NCBI GenBank assembly: GCA_030616605.1
Contig: JAUWWY010000001.1
Location: 198,251 to 240,375 of the forward strand
From: a bacterium
GTDB taxonomy: Bacteria > Patescibacteriota > Minisyncoccia > Minisyncoccales > CG1-02-41-26
DNA length: 42,125 nt
Direction: 5' to 3'
Positions 4,485 to 39,128 of the stretch are shown here, one piece after another. Within the stretch, counting starts at the first letter, position 1, and each line of letters starts with the position of its first letter. Below the pieces are notes generated by a model that worked only from the letters and a program-made list of their open reading frames with translations, did no database searches and was not told where the DNA came from. The position numbers and the translations under genes were made by a program.

Positions 4485-4490
4485 AAATTT

Positions 4491-5447
4491 ATGGAAAATA
4501 AAAAGAAAAATATACAACTCCCCTGTTTAGATGATTTTCTTTTAAATTTGCAATCTAATAATTATTCCAAAGAAACAATTTATAATTATGAAAGAGATTT
4601 AAATGTTTTTGAAGAATTTTTGAAAGATTTAAATATAAACTTTGATAAAGTAGACAAGAAAACTATTCTAAATTATAAAGCTTACCTAACTTCTCAAGAC
4701 AGAAAAACTCCAAAATCAGAAACCGGATTAAAAAAACTAAGCAGTTTCTCCATAAACAGAATGTTATCTTCGCTTCGTTCGTATTTAAAATTTTTAATAG
4801 ATATGGATTATAAAAGTCCGATTTCTCCAGATACAGTGAAACTGGTAAAAACTGAAAGAAAAAATCCTCGAATTTCTGAATTTAAAGAAATAGTAAAGAT
4901 AATTGAATCTCCAATGCAATTTGAGAAAAATGAGAGGATTGCTTTAAGAAACCGGGCAATGTTTGAAATATTATTTTCTACCGGTGTAAGAATTTCTGAA
5001 CTTATAAATATTAAAAGTAGTGATATTGATAAAACCGGACGAATATTTATTATGGGCAAGGGTAAAAAAGAAAGATTTGCTTATTTAACGTCAAGAGCTA
5101 AAAAACATTTAAAAAATTATTTGGAAGTTCGCGAAGAAATAGATTCTCCTTATCTTTTTATCCCTTATCGCGGAAAGAATATTCATATTAAAAATAAAAA
5201 AATTTCTCCTAATTATTTACAAGAGAAAATTAAAAAATACCGGGAATTACTAGGAATTAACCTCCCTATTTCTTGTCATTCCATCCGCCATGCATTTGCA
5301 ACTTATTTAGCGGAAAGCGGCGCAAATCCAGCCGCAATTCAAATTCTTCTGGGCCATGAATCTTTAGATACAACTACTCGCTATGTCCACGCTTCTGACC
5401 GTTATGCTGAAAGAATTCATCGTAAATATCATCCATTAAAAGAATAA
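4491..5447 (+). CDS. Canonical XerC/XerD-family tyrosine recombinase
   Basis: RNRAMFEILFSTGVRISEL (Arg I), HSIRHAFATYL (H-x-x-R), LLGHESLDTTTRYVH (His and Tyr nucleophile). Confidence 0.9.
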   Translation: MENKKKNIQLPCLDDFLLNLQSNNYSKETIYNYERDLNVFEEFLKDLNINFDKVDKKTILNYKAYLTSQDRKTPKSETGLKKLSSFSINRMLSSLRSYLKFLIDMDYKSPISPDTVKLVKTERKNPRISEFKEIVKIIESPMQFEKNERIALRNRAMFEILFSTGVRISELINIKSSDIDKTGRIFIMGKGKKERFAYLTSRAKKHLKNYLEVREEIDSPYLFIPYRGKNIHIKNKKISPNYLQEKIKKYRELLGINLPISCHSIRHAFATYLAESGANPAAIQILLGHESLDTTTRYVHASDRYAERIHRKYHPLKE

Positions 5448-9220: not shown

Positions 9221-11218
9221 TTAGTTCAAATCTAAAAGAGCTTCAAATTCTTTTTTCCATTGGGGGTTAATCTCAACTGCTTCTTGAGCCATTTCTTTGG
9301 CTTTCTCTATATTATTGGAAATTTGAGCAATCTGAATTCCAATCTTGTGAGACTGGAGATTTTTCGGTTCCAGGTCAATTGCTTTTTGAGCAAGCTCTAA
9401 AGCGCTTTTAAAATCTCTTTGATAAAGTTTAACTTGAGCTAAAACCCAATAGCCCTGCTGATTGTCCGGGGAAAGAGAAATAGTCTCCTGGGCATAGTTT
9501 TCAGCTAAGGGAATTTTTGTTGTGTCAATTAAAATATAGAGAGTATATAAATGAGCCAACCTTAAAATTGTCCTAAAATCCAGGGGTGATTCTTTTTTAG
9601 TTTTTTCCAACTTTTTTATCAAAAAATCTAATTCATTTTTAATATCTTCTTCGGGCATTTTTTCAATATTGTTTTGGATAATATTTTGAGATTGCTGGGC
9701 AAAAAATTCTCTTATCTGATATTTACCTAAAGGAGAGGTTTCCAGAGTTTTTTGATAAAGATTTACTCTCTGAGAGGAATCCCCTGCTCTAAGTGCCTTT
9801 ATTACTAAATAATCTGTTCTTAAGGGTTGAATAACAAATTGAAAAAAAGTGAAAAGAAAAATTAAAACTAAAAGAGCTGCTGGCCATTGATGTTTTCTAA
9901 CAAATTTTCTTTCTTTCTTTTTCTTTATTTCTCTTCCAATGTTGGCTAAAAAGCCGCCAAATCCCAAAACTAAAACAAACATCATTAAACTGGTAACCAT
10001 ATCAAAAACAGTCAGGTTTTGAATAAAATAACTAATTAAAACAGCTGGGAAAATTGAAAAAGTCCAAAAATCCAGAGATTTCTCTTTGAAATATTTTCTC
10101 CCTAAAACATAAAAGAAACCAGCAAAGAGCCCAAGATAAGTCAATAAACCAAAAATACCGGTCATTACCAAAGTATCAAAAATAATATTATGACTCCGGT
10201 CAAACCAAATCTCTCCACCACACTCTCCAATAAAAAGACAAGGGTTAAAAAATTTAGTAAAAGTTAAAGTATAATTCTCCGGACCCCAACCAAGTAACGG
10301 TTTTTCTAGAAATCCTTTTTGAGCCATTTCCCAGTTTACAAACCGAGATTGAGTAGTTATTTCAATAAATTTTTGATTAATAAAGGTTTCAGGGATAAAA
10401 AGTAAAGTCAAGCCTATTAAAACAACAAGGGAACTAATTATAAGGGTTGCTTTGCCTAAAAATCTTATTCTTTTGTTTTGGGGTCGAAAGCTTAACCAAA
10501 GTAAAAATATCAAAGCTAATCCACCTAAAGCTGAAAGAGTAGCTGCCCTAGCTCCAGCTAAATATATCACTAAGAACATTAGAATTGCTCCACCTAAGGA
10601 ATAAATTTTCCAACCCCAGTGTCTTTTTTGAAAAAATAACCAAACTGCCAAAAAGGCATTGAATAAAAGATAGGTTCCTAAAAATGAAGTGTTACCTAAA
10701 GTTGTTCCTCCTCTATCAGAAAATTTAAAACTCTCAACTCCAGCAATTTCCAAGAGGGCTATAAAAGATATTATAATTGCCACAAAGGTTGAGATGATAA
10801 AAATTTTCTTCCAATCAGAAAGTTTTTTAAAAGTTGAAGAAATTACCAGAAAAAAGCCGAAAAGATGAAACCACATCAAGAGACCGGTCATTCTTTCATA
10901 TTTTGACCAAAAAGACCTGGAAAAATCTACCCCCAAAACTGAGCTTAGTATTAAAACAATTAAAAATAAAATAAAAGCTATCAGAATTGAATTGAGTTTG
11001 GGACGATATTTTCTGTTATTTAAGATTAAAATCAGCCAGGCAAAAAATATAATCTGGCAAATTGCCATAAAATACAAACTTTTGGGTCCAACAAAGGGAA
11101 AATAAAATTTAGTATTTATAATTAAGGGGGTAAATAAAGCTAAAAGAACCCCGAAGAAAATAAAATTAACCAAAAAAGGCCTTTTTTGTCCTGATAAAGT
11201 TTCTTTTTCTTTTGGCAT
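9221..11218 (-). CDS. O-antigen ligase / Wzy-like polytopic membrane protein with C-terminal TPR repeats
   Basis: About 12 hydrophobic segments followed by a TPR-like C-terminus (GYWVLAQVKLYQRDFKSALELAQKAIDLEPKN). I prefer the ATG at 11218 (MPKEKE..., preceded by GAAGGAGA) over the ORF-track start at 11296, which adds an Arg/Gly-rich leader encoded by a GC-rich hairpin. Confidence 0.7.
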   Translation of the reverse strand: MPKEKETLSGQKRPFLVNFIFFGVLLALFTPLIINTKFYFPFVGPKSLYFMAICQIIFFAWLILILNNRKYRPKLNSILIAFILFLIVLILSSVLGVDFSRSFWSKYERMTGLLMWFHLFGFFLVISSTFKKLSDWKKIFIISTFVAIIISFIALLEIAGVESFKFSDRGGTTLGNTSFLGTYLLFNAFLAVWLFFQKRHWGWKIYSLGGAILMFLVIYLAGARAATLSALGGLALIFLLWLSFRPQNKRIRFLGKATLIISSLVVLIGLTLLFIPETFINQKFIEITTQSRFVNWEMAQKGFLEKPLLGWGPENYTLTFTKFFNPCLFIGECGGEIWFDRSHNIIFDTLVMTGIFGLLTYLGLFAGFFYVLGRKYFKEKSLDFWTFSIFPAVLISYFIQNLTVFDMVTSLMMFVLVLGFGGFLANIGREIKKKKERKFVRKHQWPAALLVLIFLFTFFQFVIQPLRTDYLVIKALRAGDSSQRVNLYQKTLETSPLGKYQIREFFAQQSQNIIQNNIEKMPEEDIKNELDFLIKKLEKTKKESPLDFRTILRLAHLYTLYILIDTTKIPLAENYAQETISLSPDNQQGYWVLAQVKLYQRDFKSALELAQKAIDLEPKNLQSHKIGIQIAQISNNIEKAKEMAQEAVEINPQWKKEFEALLDLN

Positions 11219-11230
11219 TTCTCCTTCTTG

Positions 11231-11256
11231 CCCTCCGTAGCCTTGGCGAAGGAGGG
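11231..11256. repeat. Isolated GC-rich imperfect palindrome (CCCTCC-GTA-GCC-TT-GGC-GAA-GGAGGG) just upstream of the preferred Wzy-like start
   Basis: Read directly from the sequence. It is a strikingly GC-rich patch in an AT-rich intergenic or 5' region. If translated it gives LRQGYGGQ. Confidence 0.4.
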
Positions 11257-11346
11257 TCTCTCTTCTTTCTCTTTTTTCTCTTGATTTTTTACCCATTAGA
11301 TTATTTTACTTGAAACAATTAAAAAATCAAAGTAAAATAACTTAAT

Positions 11347-12654
11347 ATGACAAAAATAAGACAAATAATTTTGCTTTTAGGAGATATAATTTTAGCTTAT
11401 ATTGCCTTAATTCTAACAGTTGTCTTTGGTTTCTGGGGAAATTTCAGCTGGCAGATTTTCTGGCAGCATTTTCTCCCTTTCACTTTTTTGTATTTCTTCT
11501 GGTTTATCTTTTTCTACATCTTTGACCTTTATAATCTTAATTTAATCCGGCCCAAAGTGGAATTTTTGGCAAGGATTGGAAGTTGTTTCCTGGTTTGTTT
11601 TGCTCTGGGAATGATTTTCTTTTATTTAATTCCTTTTCTCGGCATCACTCCAAAGACAAATCTTTTAATTAATATAATAATTTTTGCTCTTTTAACGTCT
11701 ATTTGGCGGAGAAGTTTTTATCATCTCTTTTCTGCTCATCTTCTTCAAAGGGTGGCTTTCTTGGGAAAAAATCCTTTGGCAGAATCTTTAGTAAAAGAAT
11801 TTAAAACCCAGCCTCATTTAGGTTATAAATTTGTTAAATTTTTAAATATTAGAAAAGCTCTCTTACCCCAATTAAAAAATAGAAAAATTGATACCCTAAT
11901 AATGGTTGGAGATATAACAGAAAATCCAAAATTAGTTCAGGATTTATATAAATCACTTCCTTTAAAAATAAACCTGATAGACTTATCCGACCTTTATGAA
12001 TTACTATCCCGCAAAATTCCCATTGATTTCATAGACCATAGTTGGTTCTTAAAGAACTTAAAAGAAGGTAAAAAGAAAATTTATGACAATATCAAAATAA
12101 TTGAAGATATTGTTTTTACAAGTTTAATAATTTTAATAACCTCTCCTTTTTGGTTGATATTCCCAATTTTAATTAAATTAGAAGACAAGGGCCCTGTTTT
12201 TTACAAACAAAAAAGAGTTGGCAAAGATAAAAAAGTATTCTGGCTTTGGAAATTCCGCTCAATGAAAAGAGGAGCAGAAAAGAAAAAAGCTGTCTGGGCA
12301 AAAAAAGAAGACCAAAGAGTCACAAAAGTCGGTAGATTTTTAAGGCGGAGTCATTTGGATGAAATTCCCCAGATGCTCAATGTTCTAAAAGGAGATATAT
12401 CCCTGGTTGGACCCAGGCCGGAACGGCCTGAATTTGTTAAAAAACTTGAAAAAGAAATTCCTCATTATCACTTGCGCCATATTATCAAACCCGGCTTTAG
12501 CGGCTGGGGCCAGATAAATTTCAGATATGCCCGAAGTGTAATGGATTCCCATGAAAAATTCCAATATGACCTTTATTATATAAAAAACAGGTCTTTATTA
12601 TTAGACCTGGGAATCTTACTCAAAACTTTTCAGATATTTTTTAAAAAAGAATAA
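11347..12654 (+). CDS. Polyprenyl-phosphate sugar phosphotransferase (bacterial sugar transferase / WbaP-EpsB type priming enzyme)
   Basis: N-terminal TM helices, then the C-terminal catalytic domain KFRSM...DEIPQMLNVLKGDISLVGPRPERPEF. Confidence 0.9.
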   Translation: MTKIRQIILLLGDIILAYIALILTVVFGFWGNFSWQIFWQHFLPFTFLYFFWFIFFYIFDLYNLNLIRPKVEFLARIGSCFLVCFALGMIFFYLIPFLGITPKTNLLINIIIFALLTSIWRRSFYHLFSAHLLQRVAFLGKNPLAESLVKEFKTQPHLGYKFVKFLNIRKALLPQLKNRKIDTLIMVGDITENPKLVQDLYKSLPLKINLIDLSDLYELLSRKIPIDFIDHSWFLKNLKEGKKKIYDNIKIIEDIVFTSLIILITSPFWLIFPILIKLEDKGPVFYKQKRVGKDKKVFWLWKFRSMKRGAEKKKAVWAKKEDQRVTKVGRFLRRSHLDEIPQMLNVLKGDISLVGPRPERPEFVKKLEKEIPHYHLRHIIKPGFSGWGQINFRYARSVMDSHEKFQYDLYYIKNRSLLLDLGILLKTFQIFFKKE

Positions 12655-15652: not shown

Positions 15653-16573
15653 CTAAGCAAATAATTGGAGGACTGATTCAATTTTTCTTTCAGGAATAAA
15701 AATTAAATTATCATAATTATACTCTTCTTTAATATTATGGACGATTAATTTACCCTCGGGTGTTATTTTAAATGCCTGATAACCATTATCCAATAATATT
15801 TTGATTGATTTTTGACAATTCTCTCTCCATTCCTTACCTCCTCCAACTTCTAAAATTAGTAATGGACGATACTTAGAAATTATCATAGAGGTACCCTTTA
15901 AAAGTAAACTCTCAGAACCCTCCACATCTAATTTAATTATTGTAGGGACAATATCTTCTTTTATGCAAAAATTATCTAATGTTTCTGTTCTTACTTTTAT
16001 TACTTTTCCCTTATTCTTTAGGAAATTTACTTTTCTTTTAAAAAATGTGTTAAAAACGTTGAATCGAGGTCCGTAATCTATAAAATCAAATACTCCAACT
16101 CTATCAGACAATGCTACCTGTCTCGGATAAATATTTGAAAATAGTTTTACATTTTCTTTCAATATTGAGTAAGTTCTTGGGGTTGGCTCAAAACTATAGA
16201 CTTTGCCCATAGAATCAACCAGGTTTTTGGCTAAAAGTGAATAATATCCAATATTACTTCCTGCATCTATAAAAATGTCGCCTGGTTTTAAACTCTTAAT
16301 AAGGAAAATTGTCAATTCTGGATCCTGAAATCCCAAATAATAAATTGACCCTATGCTACCCGAAGAATAACCAGATATTTTGCCTCCCCAAATTGTTTTT
16401 GCTTTTATTTTTATTTTAATTGGGGAATATTGATTTAGTAAAACAAAAAAATAAAAAATACTTGTTTTAATAGGAGTATATAAAAACCTCCCTTTTCTCA
16501 TACTTAAGTAATAAAAAGGTCTTAATTTTATTATTTTATCTATAATTTCTTGCTTTTGTATTTTCTGAGCCAT
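15653..16573 (-). CDS. FkbM-family SAM-dependent methyltransferase
   Basis: IFIDAGSNIGYYSLLA, FEPTPRTYSILKENV, IIKLDVEGSE. The start is uncertain because 16573 overlaps the upstream gene by 38 nt; an alternative ATG is at 16501. Confidence 0.8.
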   Translation of the reverse strand: MAQKIQKQEIIDKIIKLRPFYYLSMRKGRFLYTPIKTSIFYFFVLLNQYSPIKIKIKAKTIWGGKISGYSSGSIGSIYYLGFQDPELTIFLIKSLKPGDIFIDAGSNIGYYSLLAKNLVDSMGKVYSFEPTPRTYSILKENVKLFSNIYPRQVALSDRVGVFDFIDYGPRFNVFNTFFKRKVNFLKNKGKVIKVRTETLDNFCIKEDIVPTIIKLDVEGSESLLLKGTSMIISKYRPLLILEVGGGKEWRENCQKSIKILLDNGYQAFKITPEGKLIVHNIKEEYNYDNLIFIPERKIESVLQLFA

Positions 16574-17504
16574 ACAAAGAATTTACTATATTCAGGTAAT
16601 TTTTAGCGGATATTTTGTTAGTAAAATTTTCTAAAGAATATTCTCTTGGTTTAAAATTGGAAAAATTTTTAATAAAAATATTGAATTTATTTACAAAATC
16701 CCCTTTATCTTTAAAAAACATCCCACACTCATCTGTTAAATACGGCGCGCTTATTCTATCATCATACCATTTATAATTATTCCATTGCATATACCCACGA
16801 TTCCAAACAAAAGTTGGCACATCTCTTATCCAGGCCTCCTGTAAAGCCAATCCTTGACTCTCTGATTCTGAAAGACATATCATAAATTTCACTTTATTGA
16901 GCATTTCAAAATATTTTTCTTTTTTATATCTCCCATATTTTATTATTTTGTAATCAATGTTTCTAGATTCTAAGTATTGAATTATAAAATTAAAAAGTTC
17001 TTTACCAACGCTTTTCTTGTAAACCAAACATCCTTGTCGCGGGTTTTTCTGGAAATCTTTAGGATTCTCTACTCCGGCTGCCCAAACTCTAATCTTTTTA
17101 TCAAATCCTTTTTTAAAAGAAGCATAAAAATCTTTAACCCATTGAGAAGGAACAATAACCAAATCAATTACTTCATTTAATAAAATACCATTGGCATCTT
17201 CAGGAGTTACTATTATATTAGGCCCAGCAACTATCTTTTTAATTTTACCTTCTTTTTTTGCCTTGATTGCCCATTTTAAAGCATTAACCCCACTGACAAC
17301 ACAAACAACACCTGAAATATCTTGAACTTTTGGATTTAACTGATAATCAACGCCCAAAATATCAAATCCACTAATTAAACTCTCCAAAACCGCCTCGGGT
17401 CCTCCATAATAAAAAACATGGCTTTTAATGTACTTTTTGAACCACAAATAAAGCCGTTCTAAAAAAGAGGCTTCAGGAGATAAAGTTAATAAGATTACTT
17501 TCAT
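16536..17504 (-). CDS. Hypothetical GT-B-like glycosyltransferase
   Basis: Two Rossmann-like halves are suggested, and SESESQGLALQEAW resembles the GT1/GT4 acceptor-half Glu motif. The family assignment is weak. Confidence 0.45.
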   Translation of the reverse strand: MKVILLTLSPEASFLERLYLWFKKYIKSHVFYYGGPEAVLESLISGFDILGVDYQLNPKVQDISGVVCVVSGVNALKWAIKAKKEGKIKKIVAGPNIIVTPEDANGILLNEVIDLVIVPSQWVKDFYASFKKGFDKKIRVWAAGVENPKDFQKNPRQGCLVYKKSVGKELFNFIIQYLESRNIDYKIIKYGRYKKEKYFEMLNKVKFMICLSESESQGLALQEAWIRDVPTFVWNRGYMQWNNYKWYDDRISAPYLTDECGMFFKDKGDFVNKFNIFIKNFSNFKPREYSLENFTNKISAKNYLNIVNSLYGSENTKARNYR

Positions 17505-17517
17505 TTACCCTAAAATA

Positions 17518-18252
17518 TTAGGACTCAAATTCCTTCATCGCTTTTTTAGCATCTTCTATAAACTGAGCAACTGTTTCTTTTGTTCTCGCCCCAAGTAAAG
17601 ATTTAGCAATTACCTCTGGGGGAATGGTCAAAATATGAGCACCTGTTCTTGACCAATATTCTACATTTTCCGGAGTTCTTACTGAACCGACAATAATTTC
17701 AATCCCTTTAAACTGGTGGAAATCAAACCAATTTCGAAGCTCTTCCAAAACTTGAAAAGTCCGTTCTACTCCTTGCTCTTCGGAAATTCTTCCTCCAAAA
17801 ACGCTGATAAAATGAGGGGTCTTTGCTTTTTCAGGATTCGCTTCCATTCCTGTTTTAATTGCTTTGGCGGCAAAAATTGCCTGGTTAAAAGTAGTCATTG
17901 CCGTAACATTAACTCGAACCCCTTCGCTCACTAATTTTTGAATAATCGGCAGAAAAGAATTTCCCTCTCTATCAGTAATGGTAACTTTAACAGCAATATT
18001 TTCGGCTAATTTAGAATAATCTCTTGCCTGATTAAGAATCTCTTCCGGGTCCTCGCTTGTTACCTCAACACTAACAGGCCGAGGTTCAATTAATTTAGCA
18101 ATCTCAATTGTTCTTCTTTTTATTCCTTCTATCCCGCCTGTCACTCCACACTTTAAACAAATAGTAGGATTAGTAGTAACACCATCACATAAACCCCAGT
18201 TAAGGTATTTTTCAATTTCCTCTAAGTCTGCACTATCAATAAATATTTTCAT
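17518..18252 (-). CDS. Transaldolase / fructose-6-phosphate aldolase family protein (short TalC/Fsa type)
   Basis: MKIFIDSADLEEIEKYLNWGLCDGVTTNPT and the class I aldolase barrel length (~240 aa). It is encoded immediately downstream of gmhB on the same strand. Confidence 0.8.
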   Translation of the reverse strand: MKIFIDSADLEEIEKYLNWGLCDGVTTNPTICLKCGVTGGIEGIKRRTIEIAKLIEPRPVSVEVTSEDPEEILNQARDYSKLAENIAVKVTITDREGNSFLPIIQKLVSEGVRVNVTAMTTFNQAIFAAKAIKTGMEANPEKAKTPHFISVFGGRISEEQGVERTFQVLEELRNWFDFHQFKGIEIIVGSVRTPENVEYWSRTGAHILTIPPEVIAKSLLGARTKETVAQFIEDAKKAMKEFES

Positions 18253-18262
18253 AATATTTTCA

Positions 18263-18799
18263 TTATTTTTTATTTGAATTTTTAATAATTTCGACCGTTT
18301 CTTCTAAATTATTAACCTCAAAATCATAGTCCTTTTGGAAATCTTTATTATATTCTCTTCTTATTAAAATTGTTTTACAGCCAGCTGCCTTGCCAGCTCC
18401 AATGTCTTTCCATGTATCTCCAATTACATATGACTTCTTTAAATCAATAGACCATTTTTTAGCTGCTTCTAATAATAATCCTGGTTTTGGTTTTCTACAG
18501 TTGCAATTATTTTTATCATCATGAGGACAAAACTTGATTCCATCCACTAGTAATGTTTCCATTATAAACTTATGCATTTCCCCCAAATCTTCTATTTTTA
18601 GTAACCCTCTGCTTATATCCGGCTGACTAGTAAAAACTATATTCAGGAATTCCATTTTTTTAAATTCCTTTAAACATTCTTTAACATTCGGCAAAATCTC
18701 AAACTCTTCTAATCTCCAAGGAGAAGAAACTATTCCCTTTCGCATAACTACTTTGTTTATCACTCCATCCCTGTCTAAAAATATAGCTTTATTCTTCAT
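18263..18799 (-). CDS. gmhB: D-glycero-D-manno-heptose 1,7-bisphosphate phosphatase (HAD, GmhB type)
   Basis: FLDRDGVIN (DxD nucleophile), Zn-finger-like CPHDDKNNCNCRKPKPGLL, GDTWKDIGAGKAAG. Confidence 0.8.
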   Translation of the reverse strand: MKNKAIFLDRDGVINKVVMRKGIVSSPWRLEEFEILPNVKECLKEFKKMEFLNIVFTSQPDISRGLLKIEDLGEMHKFIMETLLVDGIKFCPHDDKNNCNCRKPKPGLLLEAAKKWSIDLKKSYVIGDTWKDIGAGKAAGCKTILIRREYNKDFQKDYDFEVNNLEETVEIIKNSNKK

Positions 18800-18800
18800 C

Positions 18801-19373
18801 TTATTCTTCCAACTCGGCTAAAAGATTAACAAGGAGATGATCCATAATCATTTGAAAATCTTCGGTATGAGGGGTTCTTCTTTTATCATCTAAACATGGA
18901 ATAATAACACAGGCATCAGCTTCTTTAGCTGTAGCGCCAGTATCTTTACCGACAACCCCAACAATTTTAGCCCCGATCTCCTTGGCATAATTAATGGCCT
19001 CCACTAAATTCTTTGATGTTGTCTCTGTGCCCCCACCTACGGAAAATATAAAAAGACAATCATCAGGCCTTAAATGATGCATTTCTAGTTGCCTCTTAAA
19101 AATAGATTCCCAACCTTCATCGTTAACCAAGGCAGTCAATAAAGCTGGATTATCACTTAAACAAATACTGGAGATTTTAGCAATCTTGTTAAAATCATTT
19201 GCCGAATGAGAACCGGTTCCTGCTCCTCCTCCTACCCCCAAGAAAAAAATCCTTGCTTTATTTCTCCTGACCTGACTTAAAACTTCTATCATTTTCTCAA
19301 TTGCCTTCTGGTCTAAACTATTAGCAATCTCTGCAGTTTCTTTTAAATAGTTATTAATAAAATTATTTATCAT
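18801..19373 (-). CDS. gmhA: SIS-domain phosphoheptose (sedoheptulose-7-P) isomerase, GmhA-like
   Basis: FFLGVGGGAGTGSHSANDF, LTALVNDEGWESIFKRQL, IFSVGGGTETTSKNL. I chose the start at MINNF (19373), 4 nt after the upstream stop, not 19427. Confidence 0.7.
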   Translation of the reverse strand: MINNFINNYLKETAEIANSLDQKAIEKMIEVLSQVRRNKARIFFLGVGGGAGTGSHSANDFNKIAKISSICLSDNPALLTALVNDEGWESIFKRQLEMHHLRPDDCLFIFSVGGGTETTSKNLVEAINYAKEIGAKIVGVVGKDTGATAKEADACVIIPCLDDKRRTPHTEDFQMIMDHLLVNLLAELEE

Positions 19374-19377
19374 ATAT

Positions 19378-20376
19378 TTATAAATTAATAATTTTTTTAT
19401 TTTTTGATGATTTATATAGAACATCAATGATTTTGTTTGCCATCATCCCATCATAGCTATTTCCCGAGGGTTCTCTTTTCTCTTTAATAGCGGAAATAAA
19501 TTCTTTCCATTCTTCTTTCAAAGAGGTATCTTTTTCAAATTCAAAAATTTTCTCATCCGGCCTTTTTCCTAATTTTCTCCGAAGGCCAATTATAAGCATT
19601 TCCTTTCCATAACTTCCTCCTAATCCATCAACTATAATATATCCTTTTTCTCCGAAAATCTCAAATAAAAACTTGTTTTTCCATTGAGTAGTACTGACTT
19701 GAAAATAAAGTAATTTTCTATCATTTGTCCTTAAAATACAGAAAGAGTTGTCTTCTAAATTGCTTTTTCTCCAAAACAAATTTTCATTTATGGCAACCCC
19801 TTCTTTGAATTCGCCTAAAAACCATCTGGCTAAATCTATAATATGAATACCTTGGTCTAATAATTGTCCACCTCCGGATATTTTTTGCATTCGCCACTCA
19901 GTATCATATCCCTTTCTTCCACCATGGCCATAAACTGCCCTTATATACATTAGTTTCCCAATAATACCTTTATTGACTAATTCATGGGCCTTTTTTATGG
20001 CTGGGTGAAATCGATGATTAAAACCAACTTTCAAAATAACTTTTTCTTTTTTAGCTAAATCGAAAAGAAGTTCTGCCTCTTTATAATTCCTTCCCAATGG
20101 TTTTTCGCAGAGAATATTCTTTTTAGCTCTAATTGCTTCCTTGCATATTTTCAGTAAGGCACTAGTGGGAACGGCAATAATAGTAATATCAATATTTCTA
20201 TCATCTATTAATTCTTGATAACTAGCCGCGATTTTACAGCCAATTCTTCGGCCTAATCTTTGACTTTTCTTTTTATCAATGTCAAAAACAGCTGTTATTT
20301 TGTCTTTTGATGATTTCAATATAGCATCGGCTCTCTTGTTCCCTATCAAACCAGCACCAATTATTCCTACTCTCAT
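19378..20376 (-). CDS. Gfo/Idh/MocA-family NAD(P)-dependent sugar oxidoreductase
   Basis: MRVGIIGAGLIGNKRA Rossmann start and the EKP motif in ILCEKPLGRN. Confidence 0.8.
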   Translation of the reverse strand: MRVGIIGAGLIGNKRADAILKSSKDKITAVFDIDKKKSQRLGRRIGCKIAASYQELIDDRNIDITIIAVPTSALLKICKEAIRAKKNILCEKPLGRNYKEAELLFDLAKKEKVILKVGFNHRFHPAIKKAHELVNKGIIGKLMYIRAVYGHGGRKGYDTEWRMQKISGGGQLLDQGIHIIDLARWFLGEFKEGVAINENLFWRKSNLEDNSFCILRTNDRKLLYFQVSTTQWKNKFLFEIFGEKGYIIVDGLGGSYGKEMLIIGLRRKLGKRPDEKIFEFEKDTSLKEEWKEFISAIKEKREPSGNSYDGMMANKIIDVLYKSSKNKKIINL

Positions 20377-20377
20377 A

Positions 20378-21232
20378 TTATTTTTTTATTTCTTTAAAAT
20401 ATTTATTGTCTATTCTTCTTAAAGTATAATTCGAAGATTTCATAATATCTTTTATTTTTTTCTTATCCAATTTTCTCCAATTATCCCATTTAGCACTTAT
20501 TAACTTCCCTGATAATTTATCTGACTTATTTGAGGCTAAAAATAATACAAGCTCAGCTGGGTTTTGGAGAGGAGTACCTCCACTTCTCAACTGTTTCTTG
20601 GCTTCAGATATTGCTTTTTTGCCAGCTTTTTTACCAGCTTCCAAGATCTCCTTTAACATTTTTGTATTCACTGCTCCTGGTGCAATAGCATTAACTTGAA
20701 TATTGTATTTTTTAAGTTCATCGGCTAAAACTTCAGTCAAACGAACTATTGCAGTTTTTGAAGCAGCGTAAGCGGAAAAATTTGGCCGAGAACTTGTTGC
20801 CCCACCTCCAGAAAAATTAATTATCTTCCCTCTCTTTTGTCTTTTCATATAAGGTAAAACTTCTTTTGTACAAAGGAAGGTTCCAAAAAGGTTAACTTCT
20901 ATAGTCCTGAACCAATCGTTTGAATTATTCTTTTCTAAAGGACCAATCTGACCTTGAACTCCAGCATTATTCACTAAAATATCAATTTTACCAAATCTTT
21001 GCAGAGTGTTTTTTACCATTCTCTTTACCTCTTTTGGATTTGAAACATCTACCTTTATTCCGAGAACATCTCCCCCAAGATCTTTTATTTTTTCTACTGT
21101 ATCTTTTATCTCAGCTTGTAAGAGAGAGGCCACAACAACATTAGCTCCTTCTTGAGCAAAAGTTAAAGCAATACATTCACCTATTCCTCTTCCAGCTCCC
21201 GTTATAATAGCAATTTTATTTTTTAGTAACAT
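20378..21232 (-). CDS. Classical short-chain dehydrogenase/reductase (SDR)
   Basis: ITGAGRGIG, NNAG, YAASKTA (YxxxK), plus a ~60-aa C-terminal extension. Confidence 0.85.
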   Translation of the reverse strand: MLLKNKIAIITGAGRGIGECIALTFAQEGANVVVASLLQAEIKDTVEKIKDLGGDVLGIKVDVSNPKEVKRMVKNTLQRFGKIDILVNNAGVQGQIGPLEKNNSNDWFRTIEVNLFGTFLCTKEVLPYMKRQKRGKIINFSGGGATSSRPNFSAYAASKTAIVRLTEVLADELKKYNIQVNAIAPGAVNTKMLKEILEAGKKAGKKAISEAKKQLRSGGTPLQNPAELVLFLASNKSDKLSGKLISAKWDNWRKLDKKKIKDIMKSSNYTLRRIDNKYFKEIKK

Positions 21233-21233
21233 A

Positions 21234-22220
21234 TTAAAGATTTACCAAAATTTTTGAACCTTCTAATTCGAATTTAAATGGCATTTCTCTTAAACCATTT
21301 TTGGTCATTACTTCCCGCAATTTCTTTTTATCGCCATCACAATAAAACAGAAAGAAGCCGCCGCCGCCAGCTCCCATTATTTTTCCTCCTAATACATCGT
21401 TTTCTTTGGCTAACTCATAAAGAGTGTTTATTCGAGGGTTAGATATCTTGTTTGACATCTTTTTTTTGGTCTGCCAATGCTCATCCATCAATCTTCCGAA
21501 ATTTCTCAGATCACCTCTTTCTAAACTGTTTTTTATCTCACTGCCTATTTCTTTTATTCTGGTCAAAGATTTCGTTACCTCGCTTTCATCTATTTTGGCT
21601 TGAGCACTTTGTTTAGCTAAAATACTTGATGATTCACGAGAAATACCAGTGAAATACATAACTAATTTGTTTTCTAATTCTTCTATAATATCTCTTGATA
21701 GATTTGCTTTTGAAACTTTGACCTCCCCATTTTTTTCTATATCCATAATTGTGAATCCGCCAAAAGCAGCTAAATACTGGTCGTGTTTGCCAACCGGCTT
21801 TTTCAAAACATCAATTTCTATTTTACATGCCTCTTCGGCTAATTCTTGAGTTAAGAGATTTTCTCTTTTTAATTCATGTAATCCTTTTAAGAGCCCTACT
21901 AAATAGGCGCCTGATGAGCCAAGACCAGTACCAGCCGGCACATCGGCTAAAGAAGCAATCTCAATATTGTTCTTTATTCCTGTATATTTTAATGATTCTC
22001 TAACTAATTCGTGTTTAATTTCTTCAATAGTTTTTACTGTTTCCGATTTTGAATATTTAATCCGTATCAAATCATCAGCAGCTGGTCGGTTAATACAAAT
22101 ATACATATATTTATTAAGAGTGGCACTGAATATAAAACCTCCGTATTTCGAGTAATAAGAGGGCAAATCGGTTCCTCCGCCTCCTAAAGATATTCTAAAT
22201 GGTGTTCTCACAATAATCAT
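21234..22220 (-). CDS. hddA: GHMP-family sugar kinase, HddA-like (D-glycero-alpha-D-manno-heptose 7-phosphate kinase)
   Basis: MIIVRTPFRISLGGGGTDLPSYY, GHMP motif II PAGTGLGSSGAY, C-terminal GAGGGGFFLFY. Confidence 0.7.
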   Translation of the reverse strand: MIIVRTPFRISLGGGGTDLPSYYSKYGGFIFSATLNKYMYICINRPAADDLIRIKYSKSETVKTIEEIKHELVRESLKYTGIKNNIEIASLADVPAGTGLGSSGAYLVGLLKGLHELKRENLLTQELAEEACKIEIDVLKKPVGKHDQYLAAFGGFTIMDIEKNGEVKVSKANLSRDIIEELENKLVMYFTGISRESSSILAKQSAQAKIDESEVTKSLTRIKEIGSEIKNSLERGDLRNFGRLMDEHWQTKKKMSNKISNPRINTLYELAKENDVLGGKIMGAGGGGFFLFYCDGDKKKLREVMTKNGLREMPFKFELEGSKILVNL

Positions 22221-22228
22221 ATTTCTAT

Positions 22229-22967
22229 TTATTTTTTATTTATTTTGTTTTTTATTTTTTCCCAAAAATCTTTTGTCTTTTTATAACATTCAAGGGTGTC
22301 AATGCCAAAAAGATATTCATTTTCAGGTATCAAATAAGCAAAAATGTCAACCTTTTTTTTTGAGAAGCAAGGGAAATAAATCCTTGCCAAAGTCGTAAAA
22401 TTTATTCTTAGGAATATATTTTAATATCTCCGGTTCCAAAACATAGATACCGGCATTAACAAAAAGAATTTTATTATTGCTTCCTTCTCTAAAACTTTTT
22501 ATTTTAAAGGTTTTTTTATTATAAACTACTCTTCCTCCAGCAATACCGCTATTTTTATTCTTTGTTCTATCAAAAATGGCTATGGTAATAATTCCTTTGT
22601 TCTTTTTATGAAATTCTAATAATTTTTTTAAATTGCAGTTGGTGAAATTATCACCATAAACAACAAAAAACGTCTCTTTAAACTCTTTTTCAATCTTTTT
22701 TATTGCTCCAGCACTCCCCAAAATATTTTTCTCTTTGGAATAAATAATATTTACTCCAAATCTCTTTCCTTGGCCAAAATAATTTGTTATATTTTCCGGA
22801 GCATGATGAAGATTTATATAAATGTCTTTTATTCCGGCTTTTTTTACAATATCTAAGTTATATTCCAAAATTGGTTTTCCTCCAATTTCCATCATTATTT
22901 TCGATTTATTATCAGTAAACGGCCTCAATCTCGTGCTCTTTCCAGCTGCTAGAATCATTGCTTTCAT
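22229..22967 (-). pseudogene. hddC: Sugar-1-phosphate nucleotidyltransferase, HddC-like (heptose-1-P guanylyltransferase), interrupted by a frameshift in an A9 tract
   Basis: MKAMILAAGKSTRLRPFT...GGKPILEY signature. The ORF stops at 22347 right after AAAAAAAAA (T9 on the + strand, 22353-22361). The +1 frame continues VDIFAYLIPENEYLFGIDTLECYKKTKDFWEKIKNKINKK to a TAA at 22229-22231. This restores the conserved C-terminus and fills the otherwise empty 126-nt gap before hddA. Confidence 0.75.
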
Positions 22968-23896
22968 AAATTACTAATAACTTTATTTTTTATATAATCT
23001 ATACTGATTTTTAAACCATCTTCTAAATCAATTCTTGGCTGCCAGCCCAAAGATTCTGCTTTGCTTATATCAGCCAGGTTAATTTCCGCTTCCCCTGGTA
23101 AACTTTCTTTATAAACCGGTTTGATATTTACCCCTATTAGATTTTTTATGATATTGTAAATTTCATTTACGGAATAATTTTTTCCAGAACCAATATTATA
23201 AATATTATTGCTTACTTCTTCATTGTTTATTGCTAGAATGTGAAAATCATTAACATCATCAATATAGACAAAATCTCTTCTTTTCTCTCCGTTACCGTAG
23301 ATTGTCGGCCTTTCCTCTTTTAGTAGTTTAATAATAAAAGTACTCATTACTGGGGGTATAGTTCTTCTGTAATCTTGTCTTGGTCCGTAGACATTAAAAT
23401 AGCGCAAACCCACAAAGTTTAATCTATAAAATTTATTGTATGCTGCAGCAAATATTGAATCTGCTAATTTGCTTTTTGCATAAAAACTCAGGGGTTTTTC
23501 TTCGGTTTCTGGGGTAGGAAATAAATCAGTGCCTTCATAAATAGCGGATGATTCAGCATAAACCACTTTTTTAACCAAAGCTCTTTTAGCTGCTTCAAAG
23601 ATGTTTAGAGTGCCAGTTATATTTATATCCGCAGTTTCTATTGGGTCTTTTTGACAATCGCTGATACAATTTTTTGCTGCCAAATGAAAAACAACCTCAA
23701 TATCCTTAAATAACGGATATATATTTTTTGACCTTATATCTTCTTGATAGAATTTCACCTCTTTTGGTATTTGTTCTTTTACCCCTTGGGAAAGATTATC
23801 AATACCAATAACTTTATATCCTTCTTTTATTAATCTCTCTGCTAAATTGCTTCCAATAAAGCCCGCTACCCCTGTTATTAAAATATTCTTTACCAT
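22964..23896 (-). CDS. Extended-SDR NAD-dependent sugar epimerase/dehydratase
   Basis: ITGVAGFIGSNL, YAKSK (YxxxK), RYFNVYGPRQ. Confidence 0.85.
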   Translation of the reverse strand: MVKNILITGVAGFIGSNLAERLIKEGYKVIGIDNLSQGVKEQIPKEVKFYQEDIRSKNIYPLFKDIEVVFHLAAKNCISDCQKDPIETADINITGTLNIFEAAKRALVKKVVYAESSAIYEGTDLFPTPETEEKPLSFYAKSKLADSIFAAAYNKFYRLNFVGLRYFNVYGPRQDYRRTIPPVMSTFIIKLLKEERPTIYGNGEKRRDFVYIDDVNDFHILAINNEEVSNNIYNIGSGKNYSVNEIYNIIKNLIGVNIKPVYKESLPGEAEINLADISKAESLGWQPRIDLEDGLKISIDYIKNKVISNL

Positions 23897-29637: not shown

Positions 29638-30567
29638 TCAACAGAGATTTTTTTGGTACCAGTCAACTCTCTTTCTCAAACCTTCTTCCAAATTGCATTT
29701 TGGCTCCCAGCCGAGTTCTTTTTTTGCTTTAGAATAATCGAGAGAATAGCGATATTGCTCACCTGCTCTATCCGGTAAATAAATAGGGTTAGCTTCTTTA
29801 CCTAAAATTTGAGCAATTTTTTTATATAAATCATTTAAAGTGGTTTCAATGCCAGTTCCAATATTAAAAATCGGCTTTGAAAAATCAGGAGAAACTTCTA
29901 AAGCCAAAAGATTAGCTTTTATTACGTCTTCAATGTAGACATAATCTCTCGTCTTTTCTCCGTCGCCGTACATTTCTGCCTGTTTGTTATCCGCTAATTT
30001 TCTAATATAATCAGCCATTGCTCCAGTGAATTGCCTGGGCCCGTAAACAGCCGAGTATCTTAAAACAACATATGGTAAGTTAAAAGTGGTCCTATAAAAC
30101 TCCAAATAATTTTCAATTGCCTGTTTGGAAACTATATAAGGAGAAATTGGCATAATTGGTTCAGTTTCTTTGGCTGGTAGATTTTCAGTATTTCCATAAA
30201 GAAATCCTGAAGAAGAAAATATAATCTTTTTCACGCCATATTTTTTAGCATTTTGGAAAATATTAATCGCTCCAGCAATACTATCCATATCCATTAAGGG
30301 ATCTTCAACTGATTTCGGCACTAAAACATTAAAGGCAAAATGATAAATAAATTCTGGTTTTTCTTCTCGAAAAACTTTTTCCACTTCAGGATTGGCAATA
30401 TTTAAATTATAAAATTTAGCTTCGGGGTTGAGATTTTCTTTACGTCCGGTTACTAAATTATCAATTATAGCCACCCTAACTCCTTCTTTAATTAGAGTAT
30501 CAACAGTATGAGAACCAATAAAACCAGCTCCTCCGGTAACTAAAAACTTTTTATTTTTCAATTCCAT
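29638..30567 (-). CDS. GalE-like NAD-dependent NDP-sugar epimerase (extended SDR)
   Basis: VTGGAGFIGSH, YIVSK, RYSAVYGPRQ. It is a clear paralogue of the 37422-38351 product. Confidence 0.85.
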   Translation of the reverse strand: MELKNKKFLVTGGAGFIGSHTVDTLIKEGVRVAIIDNLVTGRKENLNPEAKFYNLNIANPEVEKVFREEKPEFIYHFAFNVLVPKSVEDPLMDMDSIAGAINIFQNAKKYGVKKIIFSSSGFLYGNTENLPAKETEPIMPISPYIVSKQAIENYLEFYRTTFNLPYVVLRYSAVYGPRQFTGAMADYIRKLADNKQAEMYGDGEKTRDYVYIEDVIKANLLALEVSPDFSKPIFNIGTGIETTLNDLYKKIAQILGKEANPIYLPDRAGEQYRYSLDYSKAKKELGWEPKCNLEEGLRKRVDWYQKNLC

Positions 30568-30610
30568 ATTATTTTACAATTATCAGCTATTTTCCTCACC
30601 CGATTAATCT

Positions 30611-31390
30611 TCAATAATTCTTTGAATATTCAAATTCTTTTTTTGAGAATATATAAGTATATGAATAAAGACCGAATAATGGAAATGGCACAAGATATCC
30701 ATAATTCCAACTGTTAAACTCATCTATTGCTTTCAATTCTCCATAGTTAGGATTTCCATGAAATGCCCAGATATCATCGAATCTGAAGAAACAACCACTA
30801 TTCAAAAGCGGTAGAATCCATCTCATTAACGTAATGGTTGAGGAGTAATAATCACAATCAATATTTATTATAGCCGGTTTATATTTCAATAATCTGTCCT
30901 TTAGTTTCTCTGTTAATGACTGATCATAAAACCCTTTTATTATATGAAAATTTTCTTTAGGAAATTTTGTTCTTTTCACAACATTTAATACTTCTTTTTC
31001 TGAATGTCTCATCTCTCCCTTTTTCAATGTTGGATGATTATCGCCATCGACCTTCTCGGGTAATCCTTCAAAACTATCAAAAGCAAAAATATGAAATTTC
31101 TTTATATCTATTCTGTAATCTTTACAGAATTTCTTGAGAGCTAAAATATAAATTTCCATTGAACCACCACCCGCTACTCCAAATTCATAAAAATTATATT
31201 TTGGAGCAAAATTTTTACATGTTATATACTGATAAACCAAACAATCATAATACCAAGAAAAAAGATTATCTTTTCTTCGATATTGAAATAAGAAATAACC
31301 AAAAACATGGTTGAAAATATTTTCGACAAAAAGTCGAAAATTGTAATATTTTGGATTATTTAATTTTTGAATTAATTTCATACTACCCAA
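30611..31390 (-). CDS. TylF/MycF-type (macrocin-O-methyltransferase family) sugar O-methyltransferase
   Basis: EFGVAGGGSM, FAFDSFEGLPE, INIDCDYYSST...FDD (metal-binding Asp pattern of the family). Confidence 0.7.
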   Translation of the reverse strand: MGSMKLIQKLNNPKYYNFRLFVENIFNHVFGYFLFQYRRKDNLFSWYYDCLVYQYITCKNFAPKYNFYEFGVAGGGSMEIYILALKKFCKDYRIDIKKFHIFAFDSFEGLPEKVDGDNHPTLKKGEMRHSEKEVLNVVKRTKFPKENFHIIKGFYDQSLTEKLKDRLLKYKPAIINIDCDYYSSTITLMRWILPLLNSGCFFRFDDIWAFHGNPNYGELKAIDEFNSWNYGYLVPFPLFGLYSYTYIFSKKEFEYSKNY

Positions 31391-31447
31391 ATTAATTGTC
31401 TTTTTATTATTACAACAAAATACATTTTTTTATCTTTTAATTCCATA

Positions 31448-32419
31448 CTATTTTGATAATTCCTCACTAATCCATTTATAGGTCTTCTCTAAACCTTTTT
31501 CTAAAGAAATCTCTGACTCCCAGTTAAGAATTTTTTTTAATTGGGTTAAGTCAGCATTTCTCCCTCTAACTCCCTGAGGTTTATCTAATTGATAAACCTT
31601 TTTCAATTCCTTACCAGCAATTTTTGAAACTATATCTACTAACTCATTTATAGTTATTAACCTATCTGAGCCAATATTTAAAGGTTCTTTGTAATCTGAC
31701 TCCATTAACCTATATGTTCCTTCTAAGCAATCATCAATATAGCAGAAAGAGCGGGTTTGTTTGCCATCTCCCCAGATCTGGATTTCGTCTCCATCTTGGG
31801 TCTGAGTCACTTTTCTACATATGGCAGCTGGCGCTTTTTCTCTTCCTCCTTCGAAAACTCCTTCTGGACCGTAAATATTGTGGTATCTTGCTATTCTGAC
31901 TTCTAATCCATAATCTTGATGATAATTTTGATAAATTCTTTCAGAAAATAGCTTTTCCCAACCGTATTCATTGTCTGGATCAGCCGGATAGGCATCACTT
32001 TCTTTTAAGGGTAGTACCTCAGGGCTCTCTTGTTTAAATATAGGATAAATACAAGCAGAGGAAGAATAAAATACTCTTTTTACCTTGTTCTGCCTTGAGG
32101 CCTCTGCTATATTAACATTTATCAAAACATTATCTCTCATCACATCTGCTTTATGAAAAGTAATAAAGCCAATACCTCCCATATTGGCAGCTAAGGTATA
32201 AACTTCATCAATTCCCTGAGTTGCTTTTAAACAATTTTGAAAATCTCTTAAATCTAAAATTAAAAATTCATCTGCCTCATCTTTTGGAGAAAATTCTGGA
32301 TATTTAATATCTACTCCCCTAACCCAATAACCTTTTTCTTTTAAAAATCTTATTAGGTGATGACCGATGAACCCGCCAGCACCCGTGACTAAAATTCTTT
32401 TTTGTGTGCTTGTTTCCAT
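31448..32419 (-). CDS. GDP-mannose 3,5-epimerase (GME) family protein
   Basis: Long collinear matches to the plant GME sequence as I remember it: AANMGGIGFI, SSSACIYPIFKQ, EYGWEK, GGREKAPAAICRK, WGDGKQTRSF, PQGVRGRNADL. I chose the start at METSTQ (32419), after the fcl stop. Confidence 0.8.
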   Translation of the reverse strand: METSTQKRILVTGAGGFIGHHLIRFLKEKGYWVRGVDIKYPEFSPKDEADEFLILDLRDFQNCLKATQGIDEVYTLAANMGGIGFITFHKADVMRDNVLINVNIAEASRQNKVKRVFYSSSACIYPIFKQESPEVLPLKESDAYPADPDNEYGWEKLFSERIYQNYHQDYGLEVRIARYHNIYGPEGVFEGGREKAPAAICRKVTQTQDGDEIQIWGDGKQTRSFCYIDDCLEGTYRLMESDYKEPLNIGSDRLITINELVDIVSKIAGKELKKVYQLDKPQGVRGRNADLTQLKKILNWESEISLEKGLEKTYKWISEELSK

Positions 32420-32433
32420 ATTTTTAGGTTTTA

Positions 32434-33839
<1,406 letters not shown>

Positions 33840-33847
<8 letters not shown>

Positions 33848-34901
33848 CTTTCCACCATTTATCAGAAAATTTTTCTTTTAAGATTTTATCCCCTTCTCCG
33901 GGCGGAGTAAGTTTTAATTTTCTAAAATCAGCATCTATCATTATCTTAATTAACTCATCAAATTTTATTTTTGGCTGCCAGTTAAGTTTTTCTTTGGCTT
34001 TAGAAATATCACCGACTAAATTCTCAGCTTCAGCCGGACGGAAATAGCGAGGGTCAGTCTCAACATATTTCTGCCAATCACCCAAACCCGCATAATTAAA
34101 AGCTTTTTCTAAAAACTCTTTTACTGAATGACTTTCTCCTGTTGCTATCACATAGTCATCTGCTTTTTCCTGCTGAAGCATTAAGTGCATTACCACAACG
34201 TATTCCTGGGTAAGACCCCAATCTCTTTTTGCTTCTAAATTTCCCATGTACAGTTTTTCATCCAGACCGGCCTTTATACTGGCGACTCCTCTTGTAATTT
34301 TTCTGGTAACAAACGTTGGTCCTCTTCTGGTTCCTTCATGATTGAATAAAATTCCATTACAGGCAAAAATATTATACGCTTCCCTGTACAACCGGGTTAT
34401 ATGATAACTGAAAACCTTGGCGCAGGCATAAGGGCTTCTTGGATGAAAAGGAGTTTTTTCATTTTGTGGAGGCGGAGACGAACCGAACATTTCACTGGAA
34501 GCAGCCATATAAAATTTTATCGGCAAGCCAGAGTTCTTAATTGCTTCAAGTATTCTTAAGGTTCCTAAAGCATCAGTGTTACAGGTGTATTCAGGCATAT
34601 CAAAACTGACCCTGACATGAGACATAGCAGCCAAGTGATAAATTTCATCGGGCTTAATCTCTTTTATCAGTCTTTCAATACTACCTGTATCAGTCATATC
34701 GCCATAATGCAAATGAAGTCTCACACCGTGAATATGAGGATCCTTATAAAGATGGTCAATCCTTTCTGTCAGAAAAACGCTGTCCCACCTTATAATCCCG
34801 TGAACATCATAACCTTTGTTTAATAAAAGCTCGGCTAAATATGAACCGTCCTGTCCGGCAATTCCCGAAATCAAAGCAGTTTTTGTTTTTTCTTGATTCA
34901 T
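33840..34901 (-). CDS. gmd: GDP-mannose 4,6-dehydratase
   Basis: [65 protein letters not shown]. Confidence 0.95.
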
Positions 34902-38351: not shown

Positions 38352-38352
38352 A

Positions 38353-39075: not shown

Positions 39076-39128
39076 ATTTATGATATGCTGTATAATATAA
39101 TATAAGTTGCCAAAAATCAAGATTTATT

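Follow-up and report, generated by a model that had tools for sequence, protein, structure and literature searches.

Eight-carbon sugars, Kdo-type acids aside, are to our knowledge almost unknown in bacterial glycans, and the only octose route that we know to have been worked out is that of lincomycin. In this route, the transaldolase LmbR transfers the three-carbon unit of fructose-6-phosphate (F6P) or sedoheptulose-7-phosphate (S7P) onto ribose-5-phosphate (R5P) to give octulose-8-phosphate (PMC5854111). The isomerase LmbN, the kinase LmbP, the phosphatase LmbK and the guanylyltransferase LmbO lead on to GDP-octose (PMC4351081 Table 2, PMC12945683), which is tailored by the epimerase LmbM, the oxidoreductases LmbL and LmbZ and the aminotransferase LmbS (PMC4351081, PMC12945683). 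Here we describe a set of eight minus-strand genes, at positions 17518-23896 of a 42,125-nucleotide stretch of contig JAUWWY010000001.1 (the window), from a bacterium of the candidate phyla radiation (CPR). An initial annotation had read these genes as an operon for GDP-heptose with its own transaldolase (TAL). In our reading they encode a lincosamide-like, TAL-started pathway to a nucleoside diphosphate (NDP)-octose that feeds a surface glycan, and we give this reading an even chance of being right. An octose appears more likely than a heptose because no way of making the seven-carbon precursor was detected in the genome.

In the proposed pathway, TAL would move the three-carbon unit of F6P onto R5P and so form, by analogy with LmbR, D-glycero-D-altro-octulose-8-phosphate. 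The SIS enzyme would convert octulose-8-phosphate to octose-8-phosphate, which the GHMP kinase would phosphorylate at C1. Removal of the terminal phosphate by the HAD phosphatase and the action of the nucleotidyltransferase would then yield NDP-octose. The GalE-like epimerase and the pair formed by the classical SDR and the Gfo enzyme could act on the sugar by epimerisation or by oxidation followed by reduction, and neighbouring glycosyltransferases would attach the tailored sugar to the glycan. Which acceptor TAL uses, and with it how long the carbon chain is, which nucleotide is attached and how the sugar is tailored are all inferences. The reaction order that had been proposed from the start (isomerase, C1 kinase, terminal phosphatase, nucleotidyltransferase and then redox tailoring) is supported by the family assignments.

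The lincosamide pathway of Streptomyces lincolnensis and S. caelestis (LmbR/CcbR) has the same five core families as the operon, the comparison being made on published enzyme roles. Both have a dedicated pathway TAL rather than a pentose-phosphate enzyme, and both add an extended-SDR epimerase and a further oxidoreductase (Gfo/Idh/MocA in the window; compare LmbM and LmbZ). In contrast to the antibiotic clusters, the module of the window belongs to a Wzx/Wzy-type surface-glycan locus of a CPR bacterium with a 633-kb genome. Its isomerase carries no carrier-protein fusion, and the operon has an extra classical SDR. The operon holds no LmbS-type aminotransferase, the only DegT gene lying 15 kb away on the other strand, and the window contains no condensation or nonribosomal peptide synthetase-like genes and no thiol-chemistry or mycothiol-related genes. 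The product is therefore not expected to be lincosamine.

The GDP-D-glycero-alpha-D-manno-heptose pathway, known from the Aneurinibacillus S-layer and from the capsules of Campylobacter jejuni and Burkholderia pseudomallei, follows the same reaction logic. Among characterised families, its GmhA, HddA/WcbL and GmhB come closest to the isomerase, kinase and phosphatase of the window, and SDR-type tailoring is shared. The two differ in that the isomerase of the window has Asp for the catalytic Glu and an altered phosphate loop, its nucleotidyltransferase is not HddC-like, and its module has a hard-wired TAL in a genome in which no route to S7P was detected.

Precursor supply and conservation of the cassette

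TAL yields S7P only from F6P and erythrose-4-phosphate (E4P), and E4P is made by transketolase or phosphoketolase. In the genome (632,766 bp in 8 contigs, 97.7% complete), no match was found to Transketolase_N, Transket_pyr or the phosphoketolase family XFP, nor to Rpe, RpiA or RpiB, all of these searches being positive in control genomes. With no E4P source detected, TAL would be unable to supply S7P in this genome, and the earlier proposal that it does so is not borne out. The loss of transketolase is not confined to this genome. Two kinds of comparison were used: a pattern scan of species-representative genomes (the wider scan), which returned 25 loci, 24 of them usable, and an even sample of 151 genomes from the window's own class (the class sample). 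In the class sample, transketolase is also absent from two genomes with a TAL cassette, G049 (98% complete) and G139 (94%), and in the wider scan it is absent from 8 of the 24 cassette genomes, namely those with the TALs closest to that of the window.

The linkage of TAL to sugar-activation genes is conserved. Genes for the GHMP kinase, the SIS isomerase and the HAD phosphatase lie on the strand of the TAL gene in 18 of the 24 loci, and nearly all of these 18 also have a nucleotidyltransferase. In the class, where any TAL-like gene is present in 17 of the 151 genomes and most are only 29-46% identical to that of the window, the same three genes surround 9 of the 10 TAL loci examined, in several gene orders and with TALs in that same range of identity. 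In the tree the TALs split into at least four deep lineages, each of them linked to the cassette. It had been considered that TAL might be the sole pentose-phosphate transaldolase of the genome and lie here by chance. The gene is indeed the only TAL/FSA-family gene of the genome, but its position is not due to chance, since the same gene set recurs at related and distant TALs. Transketolase is present in 125 of the 151 class genomes, so that TAL, present in 17, seems in this class to belong to the cassette and not to housekeeping metabolism. The larger cassette-bearing genomes also keep separate canonical TALs, whose Pfam scores are 213-289 bits as against 96-131 for the cassette copies. Larger genomes from outside the CPR (Armatimonadota, Dehalococcoidia and a deltaproteobacterium) account for three loci of the wider scan, and several small genomes assigned to other phyla could be CPR bins with a wrong label. 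No description of the cassette was found in the literature searched.

Three side observations concern these genomes. In most class genomes with transketolase the enzyme is split, its N-terminal half being about 290 residues long, and the non-oxidative pentose-phosphate pathway of the class normally runs without TAL. One locus of 19 kb (L018, Kaiserbacteria) breaks the pattern of linkage: its TAL is 67% identical to that of the window, and no cassette gene lies in the 9 kb that flank it on each side.

Loci with the kinase and no TAL provide a natural comparison. HddA-like kinases are present in 26 of the 151 class genomes; 11 of these lack TAL, and all 11 have transketolase (11/11), a set of genomes too few and too closely related for statistics. 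Most of the TAL-less kinase loci also hold the phosphatase, the nucleotidyltransferase and SIS genes that are more GmhA-like, and they look like ordinary heptose pathways fed by S7P made by transketolase. Since TAL-less sets occur together with transketolase, a heptose-type pathway in this class evidently needs no TAL. One genome of 0.9 Mb (G087) has both a TAL-linked kinase/isomerase/phosphatase set (L044, G087:C13) and a TAL-less kinase/isomerase/nucleotidyltransferase set (L060, G087:C5), which suggests two different products.

Going by gene content, R5P is a plausible substrate in this genome. The genome has a single PfkB kinase, for which ribokinase is the best model (121 bits, under the cut-off). 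A ribokinase-like gene is found in 7 of the 10 transketolase-less cassette genomes and in 142 of the 151 class genomes, 1-3 kb from transketolase in the several that were compared. An association of this gene with the cassette was considered and rejected, as its spread through the class points to availability and not to association.

The operon of the window is related to two kinds of module. The fuller module has nine genes in the order (in L013) extended SDR, nucleotidyltransferase, GHMP kinase, UGDH-family gene, classical SDR, Gfo, SIS, HAD and TAL. A second nine-gene locus (L016) has the same families, the UGDH-family gene being assigned by Pfam, with the nucleotidyltransferase relocated beside TAL, and in L019, L041 and L043 the space where the UGDH-family gene would lie is of matching size. 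The operon has no UGDH-family gene, the spacing of kinase and classical SDR being a clean 1 nt, and none was found anywhere in the genome. The SIS, HAD and TAL proteins, encoded in the 3' half, are 70-88% identical to those of five-gene loci (L002-L004), and the epimerase, nucleotidyltransferase, kinase, classical SDR and Gfo enzyme are closest to the nine-gene modules, at 49-67%. Because its two halves are closest to different module types, the operon is of mosaic ancestry. The nine-gene loci carry further genes of note: L016 has an inositol-monophosphatase/FBPase-family gene between Gfo and SIS (L016:6868-7779), and in L013 TAL is followed by a hexapeptide acyltransferase and an AMP-binding ligase (L013:10788-13582).

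Properties of the encoded enzymes

Proteins of the window were assigned by Pfam and NCBIfam profile searches, and kinship was judged also by the best-scoring solved structures. None of the four core enzymes reaches the NCBI equivalog cut-off for GmhA, HddA, GmhB or HddC. As far as sequence comparison goes, the kinase, isomerase and phosphatase would count as heptose enzymes at the level of the broad family only.

Aligned with the short-type (subfamily 4) TALs of Thermoplasma acidophilum (3s0c) and Thermotoga maritima (1vpx), to which it is about 30-35% identical, the TAL of the window shows the same fold family and all catalytic and phosphate-binding residues. Kept from 3s0c are D6, N28, E63, K89, N115, T117, S150, F152, R155, S190 and R192, so that the Schiff-base Lys, the catalytic Asp/Glu/Asn/Thr set and the phosphate-binding Arg and Ser are all in place. 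Phe152 stands where fructose-6-phosphate aldolases (FSA) have Tyr, which makes the protein TAL type rather than FSA type. The catalytic residues are kept throughout the cassette TAL lineages, L039 excepted. Unlike 3s0c and 1vpx, TALs of the window type are found in genomes without other pentose-phosphate enzymes and beside activation genes, and part of the clade has an insertion of about 13 residues (134-147) before the SxFxGR strand. The insertion was examined as a marker of the acceptor pocket and rejected, because other cassette TAL lineages lack it. Public protein sets contain 2948 homologues, and those with an organism name among the top 120 are Patescibacteria or Parcubacteria; the closest named ones are from Patescibacteria, Parcubacteria and Nealsonbacteria. 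A plasmid search returned only canonical fsa/tal genes at no more than 37% identity, including a Mesorhizobium match outside any cassette.

The GHMP kinase has HddA as its best NCBIfam model (183 bits against a cut-off of 600), and among solved structures it scores highest with the heptose kinases 3k85, 4usk and 4n3o (150-172 bits). It thus sorts with heptose kinases and not with fucokinase or galactokinase, as had been expected. The motifs PxGxGLGSS and GAGGGG are present, and the gene is single-copy in the genome. LmbP is of the same broad kinase type as HddA, according to the literature.

The isomerase, the only SIS-domain protein of the genome, is nearest to GmhA rather than to KpsF in both the NCBIfam models and the structure comparison. 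It scores 60 bits (59.6) on the gmhA model TIGR00441, for which the cut-off is 209, and 48 bits with its best solved structure, GmhA 1tk9. The equivalents of His61 and His180 of 1tk9 are kept, catalytic Glu65 is replaced by Asp, and the phosphate loop reads GGGTETTS where GmhA has (G)ISTSGKS. The Asp-for-Glu change is found in 30 of 30 cassette SIS proteins. It was nevertheless rejected as a diagnostic signature of the cassette, being present also in four SIS genes of TAL-less loci, while L020 has Glu. The phosphatase scores 110-129 bits on the GmhB-specific models, below their cut-offs of 150-250, and has all of the expected motifs (DRDG, the CxH...CxC zinc loop, RKP and GDxxxD). In two related loci the SIS and HAD genes are fused into a single reading frame (L002:1246-2322 and L006:5850-6920).

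The nucleotidyltransferase had been taken for HddC-like, an identity that we do not uphold. It reaches 88 bits on the NCBIfam HddC model NF049965, which has a cut-off of 300, and four other models outscore HddC, among them Arch_glmU, MurU and Man1P-GTase (mannose-1-phosphate guanylyltransferase). Its best solved structure is 8x7s (124 bits), with the HddC structures at 46-47 bits (5xhw 47). Since other families resemble the enzyme more than HddC does, the "GDP" of the product is unproven.

The listed open reading frame (ORF) of this gene encodes 206 residues and stops at a TGA just past a run of nine A (22353-22361). Three-frame translation revealed that the adjacent frame aligns with the C-terminus of intact 238-residue homologues (L013 and L011) and ends with a TAA at 22229-22231, 8 nt before the ATG of the kinase gene. 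The apparent 126-nt gap before the kinase is therefore the broken 3' end of the nucleotidyltransferase gene. Reading TGA as a sense codon (code 25) was tried and rejected, as it does not recover the conserved C-terminus, which the frameshift does. The frameshifted stretch was not found in public reads, where the best run holds only 0.07 of the sampled words, and an exact-pattern scan of metagenome contigs returned nothing. Glycan genes can be switched by slippage in homopolymer tracts, and the run of nine A could accordingly be a case of phase variation, a true lesion or a mistake in the assembly.

For the putative tailoring enzymes, the best solved structure of the extended SDR is the GalE-type UDP-glucose 4-epimerase 4zrm (215 bits), followed by WbgU/WbpP 4-epimerases, and the protein is 57-67% identical to that encoded by the first gene of the nine-gene modules L013, L016 and L019. 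The nearest solved structures of the Gfo enzyme are inositol/sugar dehydrogenases and sugar 3-ketoreductases. The classical SDR co-occurs with the Gfo gene in five other loci (L013, L016, L019, L041 and L043).

Alternative explanations

Several points weigh against an octose pathway. No sequence feature shows chain length, and because its active site is entirely canonical, TAL fits E4P as well as R5P. In one related locus (L020), a TAL 63% identical to that of the window is followed by a canonical GmhA that has the catalytic Glu and, with 210 bits, passes the equivalog cut-off; this locus is the best evidence favouring a heptose in at least one variant of the cassette. Most cassette genomes do have transketolase, and the eight transketolase-less genomes of the wider scan carry no completeness estimate. 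The genome is extremely reduced, above all in its sugar metabolism. PGI, phosphoribosyl pyrophosphate (PRPP) synthetase and GlmS are also unmatched in it, and owing to these losses F6P and R5P would have to come from salvage kinases with unproven substrates; searches for purine and uridine phosphorylases (PNP/UDP phosphorylase) likewise gave no match in the genome. Finally, the frameshift in the nucleotidyltransferase gene may mean that the pathway is switched off or broken in this assembly.

The operon might instead make GDP-D-glycero-alpha-D-manno-heptose or a tailored derivative of it, with TAL supplying or balancing S7P, which we judge unlikely. The kinship of three core enzymes with GmhA, HddA/WcbL and GmhB, in families as well as in structures, argues for a heptose, as do the canonical GmhA of L020 and the transketolase of most cassette genomes. 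But the genome of the window has no detected transketolase or phosphoketolase and so no E4P, and at least ten other cassette genomes are also without transketolase. Where transketolase is present, it makes S7P itself, and it is in exactly such genomes that the TAL-less kinase sets sit. All four core enzymes fall under the curated cut-offs, and the literature searched on characterised GDP-heptose clusters makes no mention of a transaldolase. Chain lengths other than seven or eight would result if TAL used another aldose phosphate as acceptor, such as a hexose-6-phosphate or a deoxy or amino pentose phosphate. The cassette isomerases are diverse (at least three types, with 50 to 210 bits on the gmhA model), the cassette TALs fall into at least four deep lineages, and the sugar-phosphate pool of this genome would be very unusual, no PGI, GlmS or pentose-phosphate enzymes having been detected. 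This explanation nonetheless appears very improbable, as LmbR, the only characterised TAL of the pathway type outside the pentose-phosphate pathway that is known to us, uses R5P, and we know of no precedent for a TAL acceptor that gives any chain length other than C7 or C8.

The module could also be a decaying or switched-off acquisition that gives no product, or gives one only after slippage restores the frame (phase variation). The frameshift in the run of nine A and the loss of precursor supply would fit such a history. So would the genome-wide absence of the UGDH-family gene, which L013 and L016 have between the kinase and the classical SDR, the mosaic ancestry of the two halves, and the two tyrosine recombinase genes elsewhere in the window. 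We consider it quite unlikely all the same. All seven remaining genes are undamaged and their catalytic motifs complete, and TAL, SIS and HAD are 75-88% identical to their homologues in L002-L004. The same locus has a second, full-length nucleotidyltransferase, and assemblies commonly go wrong by one base in a run of nine A.

The octose pathway may have a wider meaning, to which we assign a chance slightly short of even. The cassette would then be a widespread primary-metabolism route to NDP-octose, with CPR bacteria and scattered members of other phyla displaying octoses (eight-carbon aldoses) in their surface glycans and the lincomycin sugar pathway being a recruited offshoot; the transketolase-less genomes would run it on salvaged ribose and hexose only. 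If this is true, a conserved mobile cassette of uncultured, host-dependent bacteria would add a new class of monosaccharide to cell-surface chemistry, and the survival of a "pentose-phosphate" enzyme in genomes that have lost that pathway would be explained. The genome of the window is a useful natural experiment in this respect, because without transketolase the heptose precursor is removed. The question is directly testable in vitro, as the five enzymes are small and soluble.

Gene models and the surrounding glycan locus

The ORF listing contains all eight minus-strand ORFs between 17518 and 23896 where the initial annotation had placed them, and Pfam and NCBIfam agree with the families that it had named. 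Two gene models were amended (Table 1): that of the nucleotidyltransferase, as described above, and that of the isomerase. The start of the isomerase gene is most likely the ATG at 19373, because homologues (n = 29) align only from there; this ATG is 4 nt past the stop codon of the Gfo gene.

Table 1. Position and assignment of the operon genes and of selected genes of the glycan locus, in window coordinates.
Feature	Position	Strand	Assignment or remark
Extended-SDR NDP-sugar epimerase, GalE/WbpP-like	22964..23896	-	Pfam Epimerase 195 bits; first gene of the module
Sugar-1-phosphate nucleotidyltransferase, frameshifted	22229..22967 (ORF listed 22347-22967)	-	Pfam NTP_transferase 110 bits
GHMP sugar-phosphate C1 kinase, HddA/WcbL/LmbP type	21234..22220	-	GHMP_kinases_N and _C domains
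Classical SDR oxidoreductase, putative tailoring enzyme	20378..21232	-	adh_short 208 bits
Gfo/Idh/MocA NAD(P) oxidoreductase, putative tailoring enzyme	19378..20376	-	GFO_IDH_MocA N- and C-terminal domains
GmhA-like SIS ketose/aldose phosphate isomerase	18801..19373 (ORF listed 18801-19427)	-	SIS_2/SIS domains
GmhB-like HAD-IIIA sugar bisphosphate phosphatase	18263..18799	-	HAD-IIIA models TIGR01656 and TIGR01662 over cut-off
Short-type transaldolase (TAL), proposed first pathway enzyme	17518..18252	-	TAL_FSA 128 bits
Wzy-like gene	9221-11296		Glycan locus
Priming sugar transferase	11347-12654	+	Glycan locus
Gmd	33840-34901		Glycan locus
Wzx flippase	35954-37432		Glycan locus
Second nucleotidyltransferase, full length	38353-39120		Glycan locus

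The tight packing of the genes (overlaps or gaps of 1-13 nt) extends past both ends of the eight-gene set, which is part of a co-directional array of glycan genes of about 22 kb. From this spacing alone we infer that the eight genes are co-transcribed. Promoter and terminator scans of the window gave results at chance level, and no tRNA or Rfam matches were found in the window. The array belongs to a glycan locus of about 30 kb, Gmd included, with many GT1, GT2 and GT4 glycosyltransferases and methyltransferases. With the Wzy-like, Wzx and glycosyltransferase genes in the same locus, the surface-glycan setting of the operon is supported. The GC content is about 30%.

Other genes of the window are noted here for completeness. 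A minus-strand ORF of 322 residues (16536-17504), 13 nt downstream of TAL, has no Pfam match. In the ESM Atlas it falls into clusters of "hypothetical protein", the nearest named proteins being GT1-like glycosyltransferases (score 0.95), and it may be a divergent glycosyltransferase. Two further sugar-nucleotide branches are present in the glycan locus. One (29638-34901) consists of Gmd, a NUDIX protein, three extended SDRs and a TylF-like methyltransferase, and the other (37422-40250) of the full-length nucleotidyltransferase, an extended SDR and the divergently transcribed DegT aminotransferase. MurG, ribosomal protein L9 and CTP synthase, all encoded in the window, show that the organism is a bacterium. 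Two adjoining tyrosine recombinase genes of the phage-integrase family (3051-5447, plus strand) are flanked by gltX and the gene for CTP synthase, some 4 kb away from where the glycan locus starts.

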